Assembly: GCA_018656655.1 (NCBI GenBank)
Contig: JABHYW010000007.1
Coordinates: 1-43,300 of the forward strand
Direction: 5' to 3'
Length of the DNA stretch: 43,300 nucleotides
From: Candidatus Komeilibacteria bacterium
GTDB lineage: Bacteria > Patescibacteriota > Patescibacteriia > UBA1558 > GWA2-36-10
The position numbers and the translations under genes are program-made. The notes beneath the pieces are model-generated. The model was not told where the DNA came from, searched no databases, and saw only the letters and a list, made by a program, of their open reading frames with translations. Shown one piece after another: positions 3,994-43,142 of the stretch. Position 1 is the first letter of the stretch. Each line of letters begins with the position of its first letter.

Positions 3994-4737
3994 ATGGAAG
4001 AAACAAATATCGTAAATGAAAATTTACAAACCCCTCCTAATAATCAAGACCCTACTACAATTGATCCTAATTTTGCTAATCCGACACCTCCATCTGATAC
4101 GCCAGTCAATCAAATAGCTAATCAAGATTTACCACCCGAAGCAGCTAATCAAATAAATCCTGCAAATGATGTTCGACAGGATCAGACGGCTATCTTTGGT
4201 AAAAGTGAATTATTGAATGCCAATGATATATTAAGTAAAATATTGGCTATTAAAGTTGGGAATAGAGTGGCTGATTTAGGAACTGGCGGTGGCATGTTTA
4301 CATTGCAAGCAGCTAGATTAGTAGGTGATCAAGGAGAGGTTTATGCTGTAGATATTATAAAACCTATTCTTAGTGATATAGAATCTAAAGCTCGGATGGC
4401 TAATCTATACAATATCAAAACTGTTTGGAGTAATATTGAAATATTAGGTGCTACCAAAATACCAGAGGCTACTTTAGATTTTGTCTTATTAATAAATACA
4501 CTATTCCAATCAAAAGAAACTGACAAAATGATTGCCGAAGGAGCCAGGCTCTTAAAAAGTGGAGGTAAAATGTTAATAATTGATTGGAGTGATACTAGTA
4601 CTGGCCTAGGTCCACACAGCGATCGACAAGTAGACCCAAATAATCTAATCGATCAAGCTCAAAAAACAAACCTAGTATTGGAGCAACAATTTAAGGCCGG
4701 ACAATATCACTTTGGCATGATATTCATAAAACAATAA
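3994..4737 (+). CDS. SAM-dependent methyltransferase with a ~70 aa P/N/Q-rich low-complexity N-terminus
   Basis: VADLGTGGGMF motif I, VYAVDI, LKSGGKMLIIDW. The N-terminus is compositionally biased. Confidence 0.7.
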   Translation: MEETNIVNENLQTPPNNQDPTTIDPNFANPTPPSDTPVNQIANQDLPPEAANQINPANDVRQDQTAIFGKSELLNANDILSKILAIKVGNRVADLGTGGGMFTLQAARLVGDQGEVYAVDIIKPILSDIESKARMANLYNIKTVWSNIEILGATKIPEATLDFVLLINTLFQSKETDKMIAEGARLLKSGGKMLIIDWSDTSTGLGPHSDRQVDPNNLIDQAQKTNLVLEQQFKAGQYHFGMIFIKQ

Positions 4738-4750
4738 ACTTATTTAAAAA

Positions 4751-4778
4751 AACAACCCTTGACTAGGGCTGTTTTTTT
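4751..4778 (+). terminator. intrinsic terminator
   Basis: aacaaccct/agggctgtt stem (one mismatch) followed by a T7 run. Confidence 0.6.
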
Positions 4779-4808
4779 ATCTAACATATAAGTAATTAAA
4801 ATAATCAC

Positions 4809-5213
4809 ATGAATTTAGAAAAACTTTTTGACCTAGCTTATATGTTCAATCGCTTTCCTCCGGCTGGCTTTTCCTGGCCAATTAGAATAGCACTACTTTT
4901 AATATTTGTAGGTTCTATTATATTAGCTCTATACGCTCAAAAAAAGATAAACGAAAAAGGGCTAAGTAAAAAACTATGGCAGAAAATACAAGTTTGGGGC
5001 TGGACCAATGGTTTAGTAGGTCTATTATTTGTATTTTTTAGAGAGGTTAAGACAATATATCTTGGTTCTCGTGGCTGGCTCTTAATTTTTATTATCATAA
5101 TGTTAATTTGGTTAGCTTTTATTATTAAATTTGCTAAAACAAAAATACCCAATAAAGAAGCTCAGGATAAAAAAAAGCAGGAGTTTGATAAATGGTTACC
5201 AAAAAGAAAATAA
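4809..5213 (+). CDS. hypothetical membrane protein (3 TM) with a basic tail
   Basis: Only long ORF here. Hydrophobic segments, K-rich C-terminus. No recognised family. Confidence 0.5.
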   Translation: MNLEKLFDLAYMFNRFPPAGFSWPIRIALLLIFVGSIILALYAQKKINEKGLSKKLWQKIQVWGWTNGLVGLLFVFFREVKTIYLGSRGWLLIFIIIMLIWLAFIIKFAKTKIPNKEAQDKKKQEFDKWLPKRK

Positions 5214-5237
5214 TTATTTAATATTACATTTTCTAAT

Positions 5238-5263
5238 AAAAACAGGTCTTAAAATCTGTTTTT
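5238..5263 (+). terminator. hairpin plus T-run abutting the yraN start codon
   Basis: aaaaacag/ctgttttt stem. The T-run ends one base before the ATG at 5264. Confidence 0.4.
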
Positions 5264-5608
5264 ATGTTAAACAAAAAATCACTAGGCCAATATGGGGAGC
5301 GAATAGCCTTAAGTTATTATCAAAAACTAGGTTATAAATTAATTACCCAAAATTATTATAGTCGTTACGGTGAGCTTGATCTAGTCCTAAAAAAAGATAA
5401 CAAAATTACTGTAGTAGAGGTCAAAACTAGATACGGTCCGCAATTTTATTGGCCTGAAGAAAGTATTAGTAACAAAAAAATAAACAATATCTATATAACT
5501 TATCAGCTATTAGCCAGGCAGGAGAAACTATCTGAGTTTTTTTATCTAGATGCTTTTATTATTGAAATCAATGGCTCTAAAGCTAAAATTAGACGCTATC
5601 AAATATAA
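5264..5608 (+). CDS. yraN: YraN/UPF0102 family endonuclease-like protein
   Basis: GERIALSYYQKLGYKLITQNYYSRYGELDLV...VVEVKTR is the family signature. Confidence 0.8.
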   Translation: MLNKKSLGQYGERIALSYYQKLGYKLITQNYYSRYGELDLVLKKDNKITVVEVKTRYGPQFYWPEESISNKKINNIYITYQLLARQEKLSEFFYLDAFIIEINGSKAKIRRYQI

Positions 5609-11438: not shown

Positions 11439-11513
11439 GGCCACGTAGCCAAGTGGTAAGGCAGAGGTTTGCAAAACCTTTATTCGGCGGTTCGATTCCG
11501 CCCGTGGCCTCCA
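11439..11513 (+). tRNA. tRNA-Cys (GCA), CCA encoded
   Basis: Hand-folded cloverleaf: acceptor ggccacg/cgtggcc, anticodon loop ttGCAaa, T-arm ggcgg-ttcgatt-ccgcc, then t-cca. Confidence 0.9.
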
Positions 11514-11663
11514 ATAGAAAATAAATAAAGTTACCCTCTGGATGGGTAGCCTCCAGTCTTCGCCCTAAAGCGAAGACTGCCCTGCGAAGCTTTATGCGTA
11601 GCATGGGCAATAAATAGTTTTTTATCAATTCAGCTTAGGCTTCGACTGGCACGCCACTTTTTT

Positions 11664-11684
11664 GAGCTTATTAAGCTCTTTTTT
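11664..11684 (+). terminator. short palindromic hairpin plus T-run
   Basis: gagcttattaagctc followed by tttttt. Confidence 0.4.
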
Positions 11685-11692
11685 GTTTATAT

Positions 11693-11727
11693 AAAAAAGA
11701 GGCAAATTATTACTATAATCTGCCTCT
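11693..11727 (-). terminator. hairpin plus T-run downstream of the small GC-rich ORF
   Basis: On the minus strand, agaggca...tgcctct 7-bp stem with a large 16-nt loop, followed by tttttt. Confidence 0.4.
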
Positions 11728-11740
11728 TAACTTCCTTCGG

Positions 11741-12097
11741 CTATAAAGCCGGACAACATTTAGTTGCCGCAGTCCTAAGATTGTATCTAGAACCACAAGT
11801 TGGACACTTAAACTCACCGCCTATTCGTCCTGATTCTTTAGCCTTAAGCACAAGCTCTTCGAATTTGACAGTTGGCGGATCCAAGACAAGTACAGAGTCA
11901 TTATTGCCGGGACTATGGTTCGAAGCACTACTCTTCTTAGGAGCAGACACTATGTTAAGCGCCGATTTAGCTCCGGCACCTTCTGAAACATCTGACTTAC
12001 TAGACAGTTTATTATCAACAATTTCCTGTAAAACCCAGTCCGAACCTAATTGATTTAGATCGGAGCTAAGACTATCTGCTGACGTTTCCCTTGGCAT
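11741..12097 (-). CDS. hypothetical small protein with an S-rich N-terminus and a Cys-rich C-terminus (CPTC...CC)
   Basis: Strong SD (aaaggagaa, about 8 nt before the ATG), own promoter and downstream hairpin. GC is clearly above the surroundings. No family recognised. Confidence 0.55.
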   Translation of the reverse strand: MPRETSADSLSSDLNQLGSDWVLQEIVDNKLSSKSDVSEGAGAKSALNIVSAPKKSSASNHSPGNNDSVLVLDPPTVKFEELVLKAKESGRIGGEFKCPTCGSRYNLRTAATKCCPAL

Positions 12098-12145
12098 AGG
12101 GTTTTCTCCTTTAATTAATGAAATGAACGATTTCTACTATACTGG

Positions 12146-12174
12146 ATATTATAATATATACTCATCTTAGTCAA
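12146..12174 (-). promoter_or_regulatory. sigma70-like promoter TTGACT-17-TAATAT for the small ORF
   Basis: Minus-strand ttgact at 12174-12169 and taatat at 12151-12146. Confidence 0.45.
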
Positions 12175-12206
12175 TAAAAAAATAGCCTTATATAAGACTA
12201 TTTTTT

Positions 12207-16186: not shown

Positions 16187-16353
16187 ATAATACTTTTTGT
16201 TAAGCTTATATTAAGAGTTAGCTTTTGGCCAAACTAACTCATGTGTCAACAGACACATAAACTAAGGCCGCCGCCGGAAATCAGGAAAAATTAGTAAAAG
16301 CTTAGTAGCGGCAAGCGAAAAGCTAATCGTGACAGATAACATTGAGACTAAAA

Positions 16354-16380
16354 AGAGCCTCTTCCGGCGGCTCTTTATTT
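16354..16380. terminator. bidirectional hairpin terminator
   Basis: agagcc-tcttccggc-ggctct with an A-run upstream and a T-run downstream. It lies 10 nt past the stop of the minus-strand AlkD-like gene. Confidence 0.6.
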
Positions 16381-16384
16381 TTGT

Positions 16385-17146
16385 CTAAAAATTACCCTTT
16401 AAAAACCTCTTACGCTTTGTTTCTTCCATTCGCTCTATAGCATAACGCAAAGTTGTCCGAGCTAAATTCTTATAATTAGTAATTAAAAACTTTTCTACTT
16501 TAATGCTATCTTTTTTCCAGGCCTCTCTAAGCATCCAACCAACTGCCTTGTGTATCAAATCTTGGCCCAGACCACCCTCTCTTGCTCCGCAATTCACCTT
16601 GTCTTTATCTTTCAATAAAATTTTAGAAAGTTTAAAACAGTCATCTAATTTACCTTCTCTAATAAAAATCCAAGTAGAAATCATAGCTATGCGTCTCTCC
16701 CAAAGCTTATTGCTCTTGGCATATTTATATAAAATTTGTTTAGTTTGTATTTTATCTAAAATTGCTTGCCCTAAAATATAATGAGCTGATAAATCTACTA
16801 AATCCCAATTATTTACATATTGTCTATTTTTAAGATAAAAACTTAAAATCTTTTTTTGCAATAATTTATCCTCGGCTTTCCTAGATTGTTTAGATCTTTC
16901 AACTAAAATCAAAATAGCTGCTAAACGTATTTCATGAATAGGTGATTTCATCAATTTAGCTAGCTCTACAAAATTTAAAGCTAAAAATTGCTTAGCTACT
17001 AACCTAGTATTTGGTACTGTAATGCCAATAAATTTATCCCCCTCACCATATTGACCTTTGCCGGTTTTAAAAAACCATTGATTAGATTTCTTACGCGCTG
17101 GTGAAGCGTATTTTTTTAATTCTTTAATTAAGTCTTTGGCTTTCAT
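16385..17146 (-). CDS. DNA alkylation repair protein (AlkD/AlkC-like HEAT-repeat glycosylase family)
   Basis: KKYASPARKKSNQWFFKTGKGQYGEGDKFIGI, NNWDLVD, LWERRIAM, HKAVGWMLRE family motifs. Carries an extra KVNCGAREGGLGQ segment. Confidence 0.8.
   Translation of the reverse strand: MKAKDLIKELKKYASPARKKSNQWFFKTGKGQYGEGDKFIGITVPNTRLVAKQFLALNFVELAKLMKSPIHEIRLAAILILVERSKQSRKAEDKLLQKKILSFYLKNRQYVNNWDLVDLSAHYILGQAILDKIQTKQILYKYAKSNKLWERRIAMISTWIFIREGKLDDCFKLSKILLKDKDKVNCGAREGGLGQDLIHKAVGWMLREAWKKDSIKVEKFLITNYKNLARTTLRYAIERMEETKRKRFLKGNF
16563..16609 (-). repeat. GC-rich in-frame repeat, copy A (inside the AlkD-like CDS)
   Basis: Identical 20-mer tggcccagaccaccctctct plus attcaccttgt shared with 42706-42752. 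Confidence 0.85.
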
Positions 17147-17237: not shown

Positions 17238-17528
17238 TTATTTTTTGTCTTCAACTTTAGCTTCTGAAACTGGAGCTACTCTTTTAACCATATCAGCAAA
17301 ACGAGATTTTTTACGATTACCAGCATTAGGTTTAAGAATATTATTCTTTACAGCTTTATCTACTACTTTTTGAAGTTCTTTTGAAATTTCATCAACTTTT
17401 TGTCCACCTATAACGGCTTTTTTACCTTTTTTGATGATTTCCTTAATATTTCTTTTAATCAAAGAATTGCGTAAAGTACGCTTTTTAGTTTGCTTCAAAT
17501 CTTTGATTGCGGCTTTCTTATTTGGCAT
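17238..17528 (-). CDS. rpsT: 30S ribosomal protein S20
   Basis: MPNKKAAIKDLKQTKKRTLRN... is a typical S20 N-terminus; basic 96 aa. Confidence 0.95.
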   Translation of the reverse strand: MPNKKAAIKDLKQTKKRTLRNSLIKRNIKEIIKKGKKAVIGGQKVDEISKELQKVVDKAVKNNILKPNAGNRKKSRFADMVKRVAPVSEAKVEDKK

Positions 17529-33215: not shown

Positions 33216-33248
33216 AATCTCCGCATCCGTGCCTGGCGGAGATTTTTT
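33216..33248 (+). terminator. GC-rich hairpin plus T-run in the leader of the 33294 gene
   Basis: aatctccgc / gcggagatt 9-bp stem, 11-nt loop, followed by tttttt. Confidence 0.6.
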
Positions 33249-36889: not shown

Positions 36890-37348
36890 TCAGCGGTTCT
36901 GACAATTAAATGACCCGTCGGGTGCTTCTACTATCCTTTCATACGCCTCGCACTCTAATCGCTCGCCTGGAGTTAGTCTTAGGCCAGTGCTTACCATTAG
37001 AGCATTTGTTATATATAAGGTCAAAGAATAGGAAATTAAAATAAGAAGCAAGCCTAAAAATGCATTTTTTAAGGTAGTTTTAGCAGCCAAGACTTTTTCA
37101 GCATTACCCCCAGAAGTCATCCACATAAATCCAGCTGTTAAAATAAAATACGTGGAAACTATTCCAAGAATAGTCAAAAAACCATTAATCAATCTAGCAG
37201 CCACTTGATAAACATTTGTTTTACTACCAAAACCAGCTGTGGTAGCAGCCTCTTGGAGTCCAGCCTGACCAATAATGGTCTCTGCTAAAACTGCCAGAGG
37301 AATAAAAAGTAATAATAATAAAACTAATTTGTATTTTTGAAATTTCAT
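36890..37348 (-). CDS. TrbC/VirB2-like (T4SS-type) pilin paralogue 1
   Basis: Start moved to the ATG at 37348 (MKFQKYKLVLLLLLFIPLAVLA signal peptide). Two TM helices around WMTSGGNAEKVLAAK. Short C-terminal tail with 2 Cys. Confidence 0.6.
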   Translation of the reverse strand: MKFQKYKLVLLLLLFIPLAVLAETIIGQAGLQEAATTAGFGSKTNVYQVAARLINGFLTILGIVSTYFILTAGFMWMTSGGNAEKVLAAKTTLKNAFLGLLLILISYSLTLYITNALMVSTGLRLTPGERLECEAYERIVEAPDGSFNCQNR

Positions 37349-37375
37349 TTTGTTTTTACTATATAGTGTAAGCTC

Positions 37376-37403
37376 TAGTAGGTTATTATATAATAACCTA
37401 CTA
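37376..37403. repeat. perfect 28-nt palindrome between pilin genes 2 and 1
   Basis: tagtaggttattatataataacctacta equals its own reverse complement (checked by hand). Confidence 0.9.
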
Positions 37404-37433
37404 TAGTCTAGACTACATATATAAATTGAACCA

Positions 37434-37799
37434 TTATTCAACAGTTTGAGTATATAATTCGCTTAATATGAATCTGGATACAGCGTAAGCTGTTAATACA
37501 ATTACCAAGCCAACAATACCAGCACCGATAAGTTTTTTAGCTTCGTCAACTTTTTCAGTATTACCTTGAGAAGTCATCCATTTAAAACCACCTAACAAAA
37601 TAATTAAAGTAGTTAAAATTCCTAGAAAACCTAGAATAATATTAATTACTCCACCAATTGTTTCTCTTAAAGGCCTTGAGCCTAAAGCAATGTTAGTATT
37701 CTGGAAATCATTAAATCCCCAATCATCAACGCTTCCAGGTTGAGCTTTAGCAGATAAAGTAGGAGCTAAAACCATTAAAGAAATAAGTATTTTTTTCAT
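37434..37799 (-). CDS. TrbC/VirB2-like pilin paralogue 2
   Basis: ATG at 37799 with SD agggggtga 7 nt upstream. Signal peptide MKKILISLMVLAPTLSAKA; motif WMTSQGNTEKVDEAK. Confidence 0.65.
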   Translation of the reverse strand: MKKILISLMVLAPTLSAKAQPGSVDDWGFNDFQNTNIALGSRPLRETIGGVINIILGFLGILTTLIILLGGFKWMTSQGNTEKVDEAKKLIGAGIVGLVIVLTAYAVSRFILSELYTQTVE

Positions 37800-37883
37800 T
37801 TTTTCACCCCCTTTCAAATATAGTAAATTTAATTAAATTATAGAACAAAAAGAATAATTTTACAATTTTTTTATTAAAAGCTA

Positions 37884-38225
37884 TTAAGCGTTTCCACCAA
37901 TAATAGTAAATAAGAAATTAATAATTATATAACTCATAAATATAATTACTAAGCCTAATATCGTCCACAAAACAGTATCTTTTCCTTTTTTAAGTCTCTC
38001 AGCACTACCCCCTGAAGTCATCCAGAGCATACCACCCCAAACCATCATTAAAAGAGCTATAGCTCCCGTAATACCCAATAGACCCTTAATCATTTGACCT
38101 GCTAAATCTGGGATATTATCTGCTTGCAATGGATTTGGTAAAGGTACTCGCCTAGAAGTACCCTGCCCACTAACCATATTCGGAAAAAGTAAAAGGGTAA
38201 ATAATATAATTTTTTTAATTAACAT
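37884..38225 (-). CDS. TrbC/VirB2-like pilin paralogue 3
   Basis: Signal peptide, then WMTSGGSAERLKKGK between two TM helices. Confidence 0.65.
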   Translation of the reverse strand: MLIKKIILFTLLLFPNMVSGQGTSRRVPLPNPLQADNIPDLAGQMIKGLLGITGAIALLMMVWGGMLWMTSGGSAERLKKGKDTVLWTILGLVIIFMSYIIINFLFTIIGGNA

Positions 38226-38264
38226 AATATTTGAAAATAATTTATTAATAAATATAGATAATTA

Positions 38265-38954
38265 TTATGGGTGATAAATGCAAGTATGGCTACTTTCTGC
38301 ACACTGCACACCTGGAGTTATACTCCAGCCTACTAGTACGTACGGCACACAACGACCGAAACGCGTATAGTCACTAAGTATCATACCCTGATATTTACAA
38401 ATATCCATGCAAGTATTACTATATGATTCCCAAAATGAATTGGAAATGACGCCAGTACACTCTTCATAATCACCACACTCCTCTTCACAAGACTCCGAAT
38501 CAGTCTCGGAATCAGGCTCAGAATTATTATTTAGATTTTGAGGTGTAAAATCACCCGCTTGAATTCTAAAATCAATAGAATTATTACTGCCGTCTTTAAC
38601 ATTTAAAACATCATTTACAAAAAATCCAACTAATAAATAACTACTAAAAGCTATCGTAATAGCCCAAAATGTATTTAGCATAATTTGCTTACCCCTATTT
38701 ACTCTTTCAGCACTGCCGCCAGATGTAAGCCACTGTAGACCACCCCATACAAAATATAATAAAGCCACTGCCCCCATCATACCTAGTAAATATTTTATTA
38801 ATAAAGACAAACCAAATGCTATATGTCCTAAATGACAATCACCATTCTTAATACAACTTAAGTTAGCATCATCCAAAAATCCTGCCTGAGCTATTTGAGG
38901 AACTAGGATAAATAAACCAGCTACAAATAAAATTTTAGTTATTAGGCGGTACAT
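38265..38954 (-). CDS. TrbC/VirB2-like pilin paralogue 4 with an acidic linker and Cys-rich C-terminal module
   Basis: WLTSGGSAERVNRGK core. ATG at 38954 preferred (the TTG at 38978 is also possible). About 110 extra C-terminal residues with 9 Cys. Confidence 0.6.
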   Translation of the reverse strand: MYRLITKILFVAGLFILVPQIAQAGFLDDANLSCIKNGDCHLGHIAFGLSLLIKYLLGMMGAVALLYFVWGGLQWLTSGGSAERVNRGKQIMLNTFWAITIAFSSYLLVGFFVNDVLNVKDGSNNSIDFRIQAGDFTPQNLNNNSEPDSETDSESCEEECGDYEECTGVISNSFWESYSNTCMDICKYQGMILSDYTRFGRCVPYVLVGWSITPGVQCAESSHTCIYHP

Positions 38955-41230: not shown

Positions 41231-41851
41231 TTAATTTAAAATATTTTTACGATGTTCAAAAATATGAGAGCCTAAGTCAAAAATTATTTTTAAAATCACT
41301 AAAAAAACCACAGCTGAGACTTCTTGACTATAATTTGTATATATAATACCTGCTCCAGCTAACATAATTATAATATGCATTATAATTATCCTTCTGTAAG
41401 GCACAAACATTTGTTTCTTAAGACTAACATATTTGAATTCCTGTTTTTTTATAAAATTAAACACAAAAGACATACCATGGCTCAAAAATATAAAAGATAA
41501 AGAAATAATCAAAGCTTTGAAATATTCAAAAACAATAACAAATGCCGCTACCTGTCCAGAAGCTAATTCTAAATTTGGCTGAAAAAGTTGAAGGATAAAA
41601 AATAAATGAACAAACATAAAAATTACATAGTGCATTATAAAAAATGGCACTAGTGGAGTAAATTTATAATTATTTATCTTTTGCATTTTCAAGATATTAA
41701 AAAAGCCAATTACAGCTGACTCCATCCAATACAAAATAATAACAGTAAATATATCCCAAGAAAAAAATAAGACTCCCAACAAAGGAATTAAATTTACTAA
41801 AATTAAAACTAAACTAGAAGGATAAAAAAATATTTTATTAAATTTTGACAT
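41231..41851 (-). CDS. hypothetical polytopic membrane protein
   Basis: 206 aa, about 6 TM helices. No motif recognised. Confidence 0.5.
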   Translation of the reverse strand: MSKFNKIFFYPSSLVLILVNLIPLLGVLFFSWDIFTVIILYWMESAVIGFFNILKMQKINNYKFTPLVPFFIMHYVIFMFVHLFFILQLFQPNLELASGQVAAFVIVFEYFKALIISLSFIFLSHGMSFVFNFIKKQEFKYVSLKKQMFVPYRRIIIMHIIIMLAGAGIIYTNYSQEVSAVVFLVILKIIFDLGSHIFEHRKNILN

Positions 41852-42668
41852 CTTTTTTATATTTAGAAACTACTAATGTAAAAACTAACATTGTAAAAAA
41901 CAAAACACTTAGATCATTTTTAAAATAAGGTACATCAACTAAGCCATGAACAAACCAAGTTAGCCACATCATAGATAATGGCCAAGCCAAATTATTATTA
42001 GCTTTAAATATATCTTTTAATAATAAAATTACATAAATTATTAAACCTATAAAAACTAATAAACCTAATAGACCCATCTCTGTCCAAAAGTTTAAAAATA
42101 TATTATGCGGATATAAATAAATTTCTAACCACTCTGTGTGATGATAAGCCTCTAAGGCATTTTGATATCCATTTAAACCTGTACCTAATAAAAAATTATC
42201 AGCTAACAAAGCACTTGTTTCTTGCCATTGATTTAGGCGAATATCTAAAGAGCTGGACTGTAAATTTAACTCTGGATTAATATCTATTTTAGGTAAAACT
42301 AATAATATACTAATTAGTCCTAAAATAATGACAGGAATAGCTATTTTTCTGAGTTTTTTAGCTAATATTAGAGCTAAAAATAGTGAAAAAATAATAGCCA
42401 ATATAGCACCTTGAGAGACTGTCATGATAGCCAATACTAGACCAAAAACAAATAATATTAAATAATGCCAGTTGAATAATTTGTCTTTAGTGTAAATCCA
42501 AAGACCGGCAAATAAAGCGGTCAGTGGAGCAGTTAAAAGACTCAAAGCATTTGGATAAGCAAAAGGCCCAGTTAACCTCTTAACATTAGGAAAATTATAA
42601 GCATCAATATAATTCCAAGTCGTAAAATTTTGATACATAGCAACGGTAAATAACCAAGCCAATAACAA
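41838..42668 (-). CDS. O-antigen ligase/polymerase (Wzy_C)-like membrane protein, C-terminal 276-codon piece
   Basis: SQGAILAIIFSL and YPHNIFLNFWTEMGLLGLL resemble Wzy_C motifs. The ORF starts only at a TTG and is in frame with 42729..43142. Confidence 0.6.
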   Translation of the reverse strand: MLLAWLFTVAMYQNFTTWNYIDAYNFPNVKRLTGPFAYPNALSLLTAPLTALFAGLWIYTKDKLFNWHYLILFVFGLVLAIMTVSQGAILAIIFSLFLALILAKKLRKIAIPVIILGLISILLVLPKIDINPELNLQSSSLDIRLNQWQETSALLADNFLLGTGLNGYQNALEAYHHTEWLEIYLYPHNIFLNFWTEMGLLGLLVFIGLIIYVILLLKDIFKANNNLAWPLSMMWLTWFVHGLVDVPYFKNDLSVLFFTMLVFTLVVSKYKKDVKI

Positions 42669-42705
42669 GGCCAGAGAATTTATAATTACTGTCCAATCTT
42701 TTTTA

Positions 42706-42752
42706 TGGCCCAGACCACCCTCTCTGGCTTAGCCATTCACCTTGTTCTTAAC
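42706..42752 (-). repeat. GC-rich in-frame repeat, copy B (contains the TAA that splits the ligase-like frame)
   Basis: Identical 20-mer plus 11-mer shared with 16563-16609. Confidence 0.85.
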
Positions 42753-43142
42753 TGTATAAACAAAAACTAGAAAAAACATTAGAGGCTCTAAAAAATAAGC
42801 TCGCCATAATCCCAAGGAGGCATAAGTAAAATTTGTTAACAAAGCTAAGATGGCAGCCAGTGACCACAAGCCTAATAAGTATCTCAAAGCTTTAGGCACT
42901 TGATTATCAAAAGTTTTTTGTAGAGAAAAATTTATTGCTTTATATTTTTTTTCTTTAAGTAACCAAACTATAAATAAAGAAACTATCAGAAGCTCTAAAA
43001 AAGTAGTTGGTATACCTAGAATATTAAAACACCAAAGATAAGATGGTAATAAAACTATCACAGCTCCTACTCCCCAAAGTGGTTTCCTATAACTTAGCCA
43101 AATGAAACCGACTAATAAAATGGCGAAAAATAAATCCATCAT
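42729..43142 (-). CDS. N-terminal 137-codon piece of the O-antigen-ligase-like membrane protein
   Basis: Four TM helices. It ends at a TAA at 42729-42731 in the same frame as the downstream piece. ATGA overlap with the upstream gene. Confidence 0.5.
   Translation of the reverse strand: MMDLFFAILLVGFIWLSYRKPLWGVGAVIVLLPSYLWCFNILGIPTTFLELLIVSLFIVWLLKEKKYKAINFSLQKTFDNQVPKALRYLLGLWSLAAILALLTNFTYASLGLWRAYFLEPLMFFLVFVYTVKNKVNG

Follow-up and report, generated by a model that had tools for sequence, protein, structure and literature searches.

A 39-nucleotide hairpin element inserted in frame into unrelated genes of Patescibacteria

The window, a 43,300-nucleotide stretch of a Candidatus Komeilibacteria contig (JABHYW010000007.1, positions 1 to 43,300), contains two minus-strand genes that share a short GC-rich segment. 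One gene encodes an intact DNA_alkylation (AlkD-like) protein and the other is a Wzy_C (O-antigen-ligase-like) frame (Table 1). The initial annotation had pointed out a 20-mer common to both genes (TGGCCCAGACCACCCTCTCT), which indeed occurs exactly twice in the whole window, at 16563-16582 and 42706-42725, with a chance expectation of 0 in 100 dinucleotide-preserving shuffles allowing up to 3 mismatches. The second block described as identical (ATTCACCTTGT) is the same in both copies, and both copies lie in minus-strand ORFs in one shared frame, as had been stated. The similarity seen in a hand alignment (40 of 47 positions) stands, and its extent is revised by the repeat finder, which extends the pair (family D5) to 41 of 48 positions, 16563-16610 versus 42706-42753, with 85% identity.

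Table 1. Features of the window discussed in the text; a slash marks the insertion point
Feature	Position	Strand	Description
Host gene 1, DNA_alkylation (AlkD-like)	16385..17146	-	253 aa, intact; Pfam PF08713, E = 1e-53
Copy 1, 39 nt	16563..16601	-	sense CAAGGTGAAT-TGCGGAGCA-AGAGAGGGTGGTCTGGGCCA, inside AlkD-like gene
Variable hairpin, copy 1	16582..16592	-	U-UGC-GGA-GCA-A, 4-bp stem, 3-nt loop
Unoccupied target site, S20 gene	17241..17254	-	sense GTTGAAGA/CAAAAAATAA
Host gene 2, Wzy_C (O-antigen-ligase-like) frame	41838..43142	-	435 codons; TAA splits it into ORFs 42729-43142 and 41838-42668
Copy 2, 39 nt	42706..42744	-	sense CAAGGTGAAT-GGCTAAGCC-AGAGAGGGTGGTCTGGGCCA, inside Wzy_C-like gene
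Variable hairpin, copy 2	42725..42735	-	U-GGC-UAA-GCC-A
In-frame TAA, hairpin loop of copy 2	42729..42731	-	GAA in all other filled alleles

On the sense strand, the consensus is composed of a 10-nt left arm (CAAGGTGAAT), a 9-nt hairpin of the form NNC-GNA-GNN and a 20-nt right arm (AGAGAGGGTGGTCTGGGCCA), with both arms being nearly invariant. The hairpin stem is free in sequence and constant in pairing. Among 14 copies the pairing is preserved in 100%, both variable pairs are changed on both sides, and the covariation score is reached by 0 of 500 shuffles. A C-G pair closes the GNA triloop, and the loop consensus C-GNA-G is that of the DNA mini-hairpin of the d(GCGAAGC) type. The DNA-parameter fold of copy 1 selects the variable hairpin, G-T wobbles in the stem are found for the sense strand only, and the folding energy of the element is unexceptional. 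The stem has 4 bp (7 bp in GC-rich hosts), and the palindrome covers just 11 of the 39 nt. A second, terminal hairpin of the right arm (TGGT-CTGG-GCCA) is weak and predicted with DNA parameters only; its pairing is kept by the variants T to C (loci L001, L002, L008, and L032) and C to T (L019 and L023). The ends of the element (CAAGGTG and TGGGCCA) are not complementary, and there are no terminal inverted repeats.

The AlkD-like protein reads KDKDKVNCGAREGGLGQDLIHKAVGW across the insert, where copy 1 encodes (D)KVNCGAREGGLG(Q). An insertion of about 13 codons directly before the IxKAxGWxLRE helix had been proposed from the window alone, and exactly those 13 residues are missing from 33 of 33 aligned homologues. 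The empty site is found in a syntenic sister genome (L028) and reads AAAGA/AGATTTG, with a gap of exactly 39 nt and a clean junction that is ambiguous by 1 nt only; over about 18 kb of synteny, the AlkD insertion is the sole large GC-rich indel. The AlphaFold2 model (mean pLDDT of 94) places the insert (residues 181-193) in the loop that joins helices 168-178 and 191-212, and pLDDT falls under 50 for residues 185-191. A PDB sequence search with the AlkD-like protein as the query returned nothing at E<=0.001. All full-length members of the 90% AlkD protein cluster have 253 aa, indicating that copy 1 is fixed in the species; the 253-aa member is recorded from 58 contigs and six sources.

For the Wzy_C-like gene, the empty allele is found in a strain of the same species (L031), which is 98.6% identical to the window over 10 kb. 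The allele reads GTTAAAGA/TAAAAAAGAT (AAAGA/TAAA), the insertion is again exactly 39 nt, and the gene is 97.4% identical outside it, with two substitutions directly 5' of the junction (AAAGA to AAGAA). The same 90% protein cluster holds 421-aa empty and 434-aa filled alleles, and filled alleles are found on at least 10 contigs. The initial annotation had suggested looking for empty sites in related genomes; with one now known from the sister genome and one from within the species, both window copies are, by sequence comparison, true insertions.

The window's Wzy_C frame reads VKNKVNG-stop-AREGGLGHKKDW, with one in-frame TAA. The L025 allele (98.4% identical) has GGCGAAGCC, that is, GAA where the window has TAA, and five other filled alleles (P0398, P0404, P0402, P0399, and P0271) read KVNGEAREGGLGH, also with GAA. 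Because every other filled Wzy allele reads GAA, the TAA is a strain-specific nonsense change limited to this assembly; presumably a single base of the hairpin loop mutated after the insertion and truncated this one allele. The NCBI product from the window contig in the Wzy cluster is the 266-aa C-terminal piece only (P0396). A parallel had been drawn to the byp inserts of Magnusiomyces mitochondria, which, like the coding gap of T4 gene 60, are short GC-rich inserts in an AT-rich coding sequence. In a translational bypass of this kind, take-off before the loop and landing downstream would leave the insert untranslated and stops within it harmless. The window's Wzy copy does place a hairpin stop beside a Gly codon, with GGC preceding the TAA and a second GGC 24 nt downstream, and the window encodes a tRNA-Gly(GCC). 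However, the stop is confined to this one assembly, the codon before the loop is elsewhere UGC, UCC, GAC, or CAC without a matching landing codon, and all other in-ORF copies in AT-rich genomes are open in frame and 3n long, which bypass would not demand. The parallel is therefore unsupported, and we regard bypass as very improbable.

Further copies, which the initial annotation had proposed to search for, number at least 12 independent ones in other CPR genes, and they occur in other CPR lineages in the same frame. Among 14 independent copies from AT-rich genomes, 13 lie in ORFs, all in sense orientation and in one frame, and 1 is intergenic. The in-ORF CPR copies read KVN-xxx-REGGLG. The host genes encode DnaE, GyrA, GrpE, S17, S20, a KhpA-like protein, a carbamoyltransferase, the AlkD-like protein, and Wzy_C, and are functionally unrelated. 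Since some of them are core housekeeping genes, the copies they carry cannot disrupt function. Gammaproteobacteria and Firmicutes have the same arms between genes, within repeats of the REP type; the hairpins there are longer (13 and 20 nt), which gives elements of 43 and 50 nt, lengths that break a frame. The element is not CPR-specific. The orientation relative to neighbouring genes is mixed in these GC-rich hosts (about 8 sense and 4 antisense). In L005 the element sits in the GAAG loop of a CGTC-type REP, and in L001, a Haliea locus, it is enclosed by the two inverted arms of a GTAG REP; copies in L001 flank a Y1_Tnp (RAYT) ORF on both sides (4897-5343, PF01797, E = 5e-9). A RAYT gene is seen at L001 alone and at none of the other 30+ loci, and a tblastn search with three Y1 transposases against all loci gave no HUH/Y1 gene in the CPR loci or the window. 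A common neighbour gene was considered and dropped, the RAYT (L001) and a GIY-YIG gene (L012) each being one-off.

The match is short and GC-rich and lies within an AT-rich MAG-type contig, which might suggest an assembly chimera, a contaminant, or chance similarity. The wide recording of the AlkD member and of the filled Wzy alleles, the origin of the copies from independent projects and phyla, the compensatory stem changes, and the zero expectation for the 20-mer all stand against this, and refute the chance or chimerism that the initial annotation had named as a possible objection; we give this explanation practically no weight. The idea of a miniature element that inserts in frame into unrelated genes is instead borne out by the empty sites, the further copies, the stem covariation, and the absence from the 33 orthologues.

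A third presence/absence locus is the S20 gene. In the related CPR contig L032, the site that is empty in the window is occupied by a variant copy, the L032 protein ending in AKVEDKVNGEAREGGLGQKK and the window protein in AKVEDKK. The empty site reads GAAGA/CAAA, and the target already held GACAA, that is, the flank plus the start of the element. Three synonymous-looking changes in the L032 copy were considered as a sign of peptide-level selection and rejected, the same variants recurring in non-coding copies. At all three loci (AlkD, Wzy, and S20), the difference is an exact 39-nt presence or absence with no target duplication, and an ARGA/ flank is present at 3 of 3 empty sites; the AlkD and Wzy insertions each split a GAN codon. 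GA occupies positions -2 and -1 in 11 of the 14 AT-rich copies compared with a background of about 5% for the GA dinucleotide, and GA/ is also frequent in GC-rich hosts, where the flanks are not A-rich.

The target preference bears on the reading frame. In the window ORFs, 49% of the AAAGA occurrences on both strands are sense and in the phase AAA GA/N, a share that rises to 83% when the sense strand only is counted and the stop-creating phase is excluded. In AT-rich CPR genomes the ARGA motif would thus lie mostly sense, in the phase AAR GA/N, so that the element would tend to land in one frame, probably adding a hydrophilic, glycine-rich 13-residue loop of the form (D/N)KVN-xxx-REGGLG(Q/H). 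Copies that land out of this phase or orientation would be rarer from the outset and presumably purged by selection, and the surviving copies appear to occupy disordered loops or Lys/Glu-rich tails and to be translated within the protein. The constant frame is largely explained by the length of 3x13 nt, the ARGA/ target preference, and purifying selection. From the target preference, sense orientation is expected at about 0.67 per copy and is observed in 13 of 13, which leaves a residual bias unexplained.

This uniformity could also mean that the element is retained for what its RNA or peptide does in each host gene, with mobility being secondary; it might bind a conserved RNA-binding factor, provide pause sites of the Shine-Dalgarno type (AAGGUGA, GAGGGUGG), or act as a functional KVN..REGGLG peptide tag. 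Besides the single sense frame, the wobble pairs are compatible with sense-strand folding only, and the arms are near-invariant even at synonymous positions, ATTCACCTTG being conserved in nearly all matches of a genome scan that required the 20-mer only. Against this, the copies in GC-rich genomes are intergenic, in either orientation and of frame-breaking length, the host genes share no function, a single species can dispense with the Wzy copy, no Rfam family matches, and the fold is of ordinary stability. We consider such a function improbable, and the mixed orientation in GC-rich hosts also led us to reject an RNA-level orientation rule.

The Rfam search at the gathering threshold gave only three tRNAs, and no family for the element was found at E<=1 in three GC-rich loci and the whole window, nor in a 700-nt element array searched at E<=10. 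An IMG/VR pattern scan gave 0 matches, plasmid, phage, and E. coli collections gave chance 17-22-nt matches only, and a concatenated KDKVNGEAREGGLGQ peptide query against a set of 5.8 billion proteins gave no candidates, the word index of this search needing three shared words. Literature searches by sequence strings resulted in no match or in unrelated primers only. The 39-nt element is apparently undescribed so far. Several resemblances were also considered and rejected. The paired regions do not correspond to those of tmRNA PK1 (CAAGGUGCAUGCC..GAGGGGCGGUUGGCC in E. coli), and the similarity is not known from B. subtilis tmRNA. The UGA would be in the wrong frame for a bacterial SECIS, the arms are not complementary as in an integron attC, and a group II intron remnant was likewise dropped.

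The closest known systems are small palindromic repeats. The Rickettsia palindromic elements (RPEs), reportedly described by Ogata et al. in 2000, had been named as a parallel, and the comparison is apt: like them and like intragenic REPs, the element inserts in frame into ORFs that remain intact, often in loops, termini, or replication and repair genes. RPE-1 is about 100-150 bp long, whereas our element has 39 nt and resides in Patescibacteria, Firmicutes, and Gammaproteobacteria instead of Rickettsia, being set apart by size and host. Intragenic GTAG and CGTC REPs are reported, and RPE-4 and RPE-6 are equated with CGTC REPs (Di Nocera et al. 2013, PMC3733652), a paper from which the sequence strings of the element are absent. 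REPs are near-symmetric and carry GTAG or CGTC tags; in contrast, the element has long asymmetric arms around a minimal 4-bp hairpin, and its consensus (CAAGGTGAAT...GGGCCA) has neither tag, those at L001, L005, and L012 belonging to the surrounding host repeats. It resembles REP/REPIN-RAYT systems (REPtrons), whose hairpin units of 20-40 nt have a conserved flank that is single-stranded and are believed to move as ssDNA through a Y1 HUH enzyme; at one locus, L001, copies of the element flank a Y1_Tnp gene. The element differs in lacking the GTAG tag, in that the L001 copy lies inside a separate GTAG REP loop and may be a passenger, and in being intragenic and low-copy in CPR loci without a RAYT. 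IS200/IS605 elements and their miniature derivatives (PATEs) likewise have no TIR and no TSD, insert 3' of a short specific target, and use subterminal hairpins as recognition signals, but their two hairpins are both well formed and their length is about 100 nt or more, whereas the element has one well-supported hairpin and no candidate TnpA partner. MITEs (Correia, QMITE of Coxiella, and others) are non-autonomous as well and, according to PMC5896051, can insert in frame into genes; they are defined by terminal inverted repeats, target duplications, and a size of 70-300 bp (PMC3733652), which contrasts with 39 nt, no TIR, and no TSD at three empty sites.

We put at about even odds the reading of a 39-nt non-autonomous mobile element of the REP/RPE kind, moved via ssDNA by a candidate HUH/Y1-type enzyme. 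A trans-acting, structure-specific ssDNA enzyme of this type (a RAYT or an IS200/IS605-like "peel and paste" enzyme) would recognise the hairpin plus arms; the insertion itself takes place immediately 3' of a purine-rich tetramer (ARGA/N), without target-site duplication. Bearing on the ssDNA route are the lack of terminal inverted repeats and of a target duplication, the implausibility, by physical reasoning, of a 39-bp double-stranded circle, the placement of the element in loops of other palindromes in GC-rich hosts, the copies on both sides of the Y1_Tnp gene in L001, and the mini-hairpin type of the loop, a hairpin that folds with DNA parameters recover. Several observations weigh against this mechanism: the CPR loci and the window gave no HUH/Y1 gene, the element may only ride inside the GTAG REP of the Haliea RAYT, the GTAG/CGTC tag is missing, a single hairpin is strongly supported (compared with two at IS200/IS605 ends), the substitutions at the Wzy junction fit a templated or recombinational event better than clean cut-and-paste, and the target preference leaves the residual sense bias. 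GC skew was of no use for telling the direction of replication, as it only tracks gene orientation in the window.

Spread by recombination is a rather unlikely alternative, in which the hairpin would stall replication and microhomology-mediated template switching or short-patch gene conversion would place the element into A-rich sites; AARGA or A-rich flanks would serve as microhomology, and natural transformation could carry the element between taxa. Most copies are purine-rich on both sides (AAAGA upstream, AGA or AAAAAAGA downstream), the two substitutions lie exactly at the 5' Wzy junction of a gene otherwise nearly identical to the empty allele, GACAA pre-existed in the S20 target, and no transposase was found near the element in CPR loci. 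The clean AlkD junction argues against it, as does the persistence of GA/ in GC-rich hosts, and microhomology of 4-5 nt does not explain near-invariant 10- and 20-nt arms in three phyla, nor the selection for stem pairing.

If the ssDNA reading holds, the element could be the smallest site-specific mobile DNA yet, a single-hairpin "nano-transposon" of 39 nt, near-unchanged in CPR, Firmicutes, and Gammaproteobacteria, moved by enzymes of a class that has so far no known tie to it, currently active in CPR as the within-species polymorphism suggests, and installing a fixed 13-residue loop in the essential proteins GyrA, DnaE, S17, S20, and GrpE; we hold this extended claim to be doubtful.

The other GC-rich islands of the window share no sequence with the element, as had been noted; they are a terminator or clusters of hairpins between genes. 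In orthologues, there are further families of mini-inserts that are GC-rich and in frame.

A very small GC-rich element, tolerated even in essential genes, is thus remodelling the highly compact and AT-rich genomes of CPR/Patescibacteria. This affects gene calling, with one allele being split by a stop within the element, as well as orthologue alignments and the reading of "lineage-specific loops". Arms that are nearly identical in three phyla, around a stem that covaries freely, are what marks a site recognised in cis by a conserved enzyme. Once this enzyme is known, it could point to a minimal substrate for ssDNA insertion; with 39 nt, no duplication, and a 4-nt target, such a substrate would be potentially useful as a tool. 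Recent horizontal exchange of CPR bacteria with other phyla also has a natural marker in the element.

The GC-rich segment that the initial annotation reported in one frame of two unrelated genes is a 39-nt element with a left arm, a variable hairpin and a right arm. A 20-mer identical in both copies occurs exactly twice in the window, where none is expected by chance even with three mismatches, and a repeat finder (family D5) lengthens the match to 41 identities in 48 nt. Each copy is sense to a minus-strand ORF, and the two share a reading frame, in agreement with that report. Their mismatches cluster in the 9-nt palindrome, reading TGC-GGA-GCA (AlkD) and GGC-TAA-GCC (Wzy) on the sense strand, and are thus compensatory.

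Coordinates of the element copies, their host genes and other features discussed
Feature	Sequence	Position	Strand	Remarks
Element, AlkD copy	window	16563-16601	-	20-mer at 16563-16582
Element, Wzy copy	window	42706-42744	-	20-mer at 42706-42725
DNA_alkylation (AlkD-like) protein	window	16385-17146	-	Pfam; reads KDKDKVNCGAREGGLGQDLIHKAVGW
Wzy_C frame	window	41838-43142	-	reads VKNKVNG*AREGGLGHKKDW; single in-frame TAA at 42729-42731
Wzy junction substitutions	window	42745-42752		compared with L031
tRNA-Cys	window	11439-11513
Three GC-rich hairpins	window	11518-11612	+	AT-rich spacer
Region not aligning with L028	window	11527-12206		includes 118-aa ORF, 11741-12097
GC-rich segment, 115 nt	window	16262-16376		between pol III delta and AlkD-like genes
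Terminator-type hairpin	window	33216-33248		CTCCGC...GCGGAG, then T run
26-nt repeats	window	37098-38732		four copies of TCAGCATTACCCCCAGAAGTCATCCA
REPtron-like arrangement with Y1_Tnp (RAYT) gene	L001 (Haliea)	4697-5527
Tandem units and adjoining small gene	L012	5140-5840, 5872-6165		units ~190 nt each
AlkD orthologue P0165	L032	1428-2201		36-nt insert TTATCCCGCGTAGCGGGACCCCGCCAGAGGCGGTGGCGA
Wzy orthologue P0288	L033	102-1430		27-nt insert GCCAGCCTCGCTAGCTCGTCTAGGCGG

The proposal of an insertion of about 13 codons in the AlkD-like protein is borne out: exactly 13 residues (DKVNCGAREGGLG) are missing from 33/33 aligned homologues (20 distant and 13 close), the closest relatives reading LLKDK-EDLMHKA at the site. 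In the AlphaFold2 model, which is confident overall (mean pLDDT 94), the insert forms part of an interhelical loop and falls to pLDDT <50 at residues 185-191. The syntenic sister genome L028 (~85% nucleotide identity; protein P0152, named Candidatus Komeilibacteria) has the empty site AAAGA/AGATTTG (slash, insertion point) where the window reads AAAGA[CAAGGTGAATTGCGGAGCAAGAGAGGGTGGTCTGGGCCA]AGATTTG, a 39-nt gap with a register ambiguous by one base and no target duplication. The insertion divides a Glu GAA codon, giving GAC...CAA, and is the only large GC-rich indel over ~18 kb of alignable window/L028 synteny.

The Wzy site is empty in L031 (GTTAAAGA/TAAAAAAGAT), a contig of the same species that is 98.6% identical over 10 kb, and filled in the window (GTTAAGAA[39 nt]TAAAAAAGAT), where the insertion divides an Asp GAT codon. 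The 90%-identity protein cluster holds empty 421-aa and filled 434-aa alleles together: an empty allele recurs on 18 contigs (one of them 860 kb long) and a filled one on six, alongside several further filled alleles. This within-species polymorphism shows recent activity of the element. In the AlkD cluster, every full-length protein has 253 aa and hence the AlkD insertion, which is missing in the next relatives; the AlkD copy is thus the older event and the still polymorphic Wzy copy the younger. Apart from the window's, all filled Wzy alleles read KVNGEAREGGLGH, so that the TAA is a G-to-T change in the hairpin loop private to this assembly; L025 (98.4% identical) has GGCGAAGCC at the copy. 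With the TAA missing from every other filled allele, the suggested parallel to translational bypass (byp) inserts is not supported. Directly 5' of the Wzy insertion, two substitutions relative to L031 turn AAAGA into AAGAA (Lys AAA to AAG plus Asp to Asn). They are common to all filled alleles, the gene elsewhere being 97.4% identical to L031, and are possibly a trace left by the insertion.

The wider search for the 20-mer that had been recommended yielded 16 stretches in a species-representative genome collection, nearly all holding the whole element, and a gapped pattern scan of metagenomes yielded 11 loci. Subfamily variants were found (e.g., AGAGAAGGTGGCCTGGGCCA), and exact-match scans therefore caught only part of the family. 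The AT-rich copies, of CPR (Patescibacteria) type, are all 39 nt long with a 9-nt hairpin. One is intergenic, and the others lie in DnaE (linker between HHH and OB domains; Gracilibacteria, code 25), a Falkowbacteria carbamoyltransferase, the N-terminal extensions of GyrA and S17, the GrpE N-terminus, the S20 C-terminus, the tail of a KhpA-like protein, a membrane protein right behind the start codon, and three Lys/Glu-rich protein ends (L017, L021, L027). S20 provides a third empty/filled pair: the gene in the window is empty, ending ...GTTGAAGA/CAAAAAATAA, and in L032, a related CPR contig, the site is filled by a variant copy, the end reading ...AKVEDKVNGEAREGGLGQKK*. The presence of copies in several core housekeeping genes means that the element cannot be inactivating.

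Inside ORFs the element is always sense (13/13 copies) and encodes (D/N)KVN-xxx-REGGLG(Q/H). Because only one of its six frames contains a stop, stop avoidance alone is insufficient for the constant frame. ARGA lies directly 5' of the insertion at all three empty sites, and GA precedes 11/14 AT-rich copies, compared with a background GA frequency of ~5%. Within the window ORFs, 49% of both-strand AAAGA occurrences are sense and in phase AAA GA/N, or 83% when only the sense strand is counted and the stop-creating phase is dropped, so that a single frame for 13/13 copies is unsurprising once their orientation is sense (0.83^13, ~0.09). The sense orientation itself is explained only in part (~0.67 per copy expected); the remaining bias would reflect selection against Pro-/Trp-rich antisense and +2 peptides, or strand-specific insertion.

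Pairing is complete (100% of cells) at the four stem pairs of 14 distinct 39-nt copies, two of which vary, as GC/UA/CG/GU and GC/AU/CG; this covariation is reached by 0/500 shuffles, and slid controls collapse. The loop is G/A/T-N-A with C-G closing, most commonly GCGAAGC, a classic, very stable DNA mini-hairpin. Wobble pairs in L018, L006, L019, and L023 are tolerable on the sense strand only. The DNA-parameter fold contains the variable hairpin and a weak 3'-terminal hairpin (TGGT-CTGG-GCCA), and the RNA-parameter fold is unremarkable. The arms are nearly invariant, including the left arm, although the genome scan imposed the 20-mer only. As individual copies have no reason to keep the stem, a stem free in sequence yet always paired, between invariant arms, is the expected product of selection for transposability.

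The arms also occur in Gammaproteobacteria (Haliea, Cellvibrionaceae SEMH9, Pseudomaricurvus, and a Pseudomonadales MAG) and Firmicutes (Pseudoflavonifractor and an Oscillospiraceae MAG); Gemmiger contig L011 has the right arm only, the fetched locus beginning at the match. In these non-CPR hosts, hairpins of 9-20 nt give elements of 39-50 nt, sometimes not 3n; the fixed 39 nt in CPR genes is, by comparison, the expected filter. The non-CPR copies are intergenic, of mixed orientation to neighboring genes, and nested within other palindromic repeats (REPs), which we assign to the GTAG and CGTC classes of Di Nocera et al. 2013 (PMC3733652), the latter reported without a dedicated enzyme (PMC3733652). 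In L005, the element occupies the GAAG loop of a REP of CGTC type (GTCATTCCCGCGA[...]AGGCGGGAATCCAG); in L001, it is bracketed by the inverted arms of a GTAG REP. In Cellvibrionaceae, it lies inside tandem units of ~190 nt made of CGTCATTGCGAGG-type repeats; such units, built from CGTC-tagged inverted repeats, are present in L012, L003, L007, and L010. The last unit of L012 lacks the 39-50-nt element, and the array directly adjoins a small gene whose product start is, by eye, GIY-YIG nuclease-like (MNKQPAVYILASKYRGTLYTGVT...). In L001, composite units (GTAG REP, element, inverted GTAGGAGC) stand on both sides of the RAYT gene in one orientation, a REPtron-like arrangement. Neither the RAYT nor the GIY-YIG neighbor recurs among the other loci.

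The element inserts 3' of a short purine motif and leaves no duplication; terminal inverted repeats are absent, the hairpin is under selection, and in GC-rich non-CPR hosts the element prefers loops of other palindromes. A single-strand DNA route is known for IS200/IS605 and proposed for REP/RAYT. By analogy, and because a duplex circle of only 39 bp is implausible and duplications would be expected of a DDE transposase, we infer that the element may pass through a single-stranded DNA intermediate processed by a structure-specific HUH/Y1-type enzyme. No such enzyme was found in ~60 kb sampled from the window's species or in the other CPR loci, the element lacks a GTAG tag, and the two substitutions hugging the Wzy 5' junction hint at a templated or recombinational component; for these reasons, microhomology-mediated copying instead of transposition is retained as the main rival.

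Other features were observed in the window. The three hairpins directly 3' of tRNA-Cys (RNA fold, -39.2 kcal/mol; z = -6.1; equaled by 0/200 shuffles) have no Rfam match; they may represent a small RNA or a cluster of REP-like repeats. A 10-bp GC stem (GCCGCCGGAA...UUCCGGCGGC) closes the 115-nt segment (z = -2.4, + strand), which has no Rfam match at E<=1, does not align with L028, and is possibly a structured ncRNA or bidirectional terminator. A further island, initially suggested as a possible part of the same phenomenon, looks like an ordinary terminator-type hairpin unrelated to the element. The 26-nt repeats (77-100% identity, ~450-700 nt apart) fall within consecutive small paralogs, whose L031 equivalents have T4SS_pilin/TrbC Pfam matches.

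In related CPR genomes, AlkD and Wzy orthologues carry in-frame GC-rich mini-inserts of other kinds at A-rich sites. The insert in P0165 encodes LSRVAGPRQRRW at GAAAAA/AAAAAGA and forms tandem hairpins (CCCGC-GTA-GCGGG and CCGCC-AGA-GGCGG), again with GNA-type triloops; P0153 has the related SRGAGPSQRRR, and P0160 and P0162 have SADSAQN and SAGSAQN at a different site. The GC-rich insert in P0288, also seen in P0280, encodes ASLASSSRR, and GC-rich palindromes (CCCCTTGACAGGGG/CCCCCTGTCAGGGGGG) take the place of the L033 gene's 3' end and create the new C-terminus ...NPSRPPLDRGGANPPVRGDLGG. These orthologues show that the element is one of several families of in-frame mini-inserts in this clade.

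The element matches no Rfam family, and searches of plasmid, phage, and E. coli records and of the literature covered did not recover it. Rickettsia palindromic elements are known in-frame palindromic inserts. Intragenic GTAG/CGTC REPs have also been described (PMC3733652), so that inserts of this kind are not new. What sets the element apart from both is its long asymmetric arms with a minimal hairpin and no tag, its size, its strict target, its near-identity across phyla, and its setting in essential genes of CPR bacteria.
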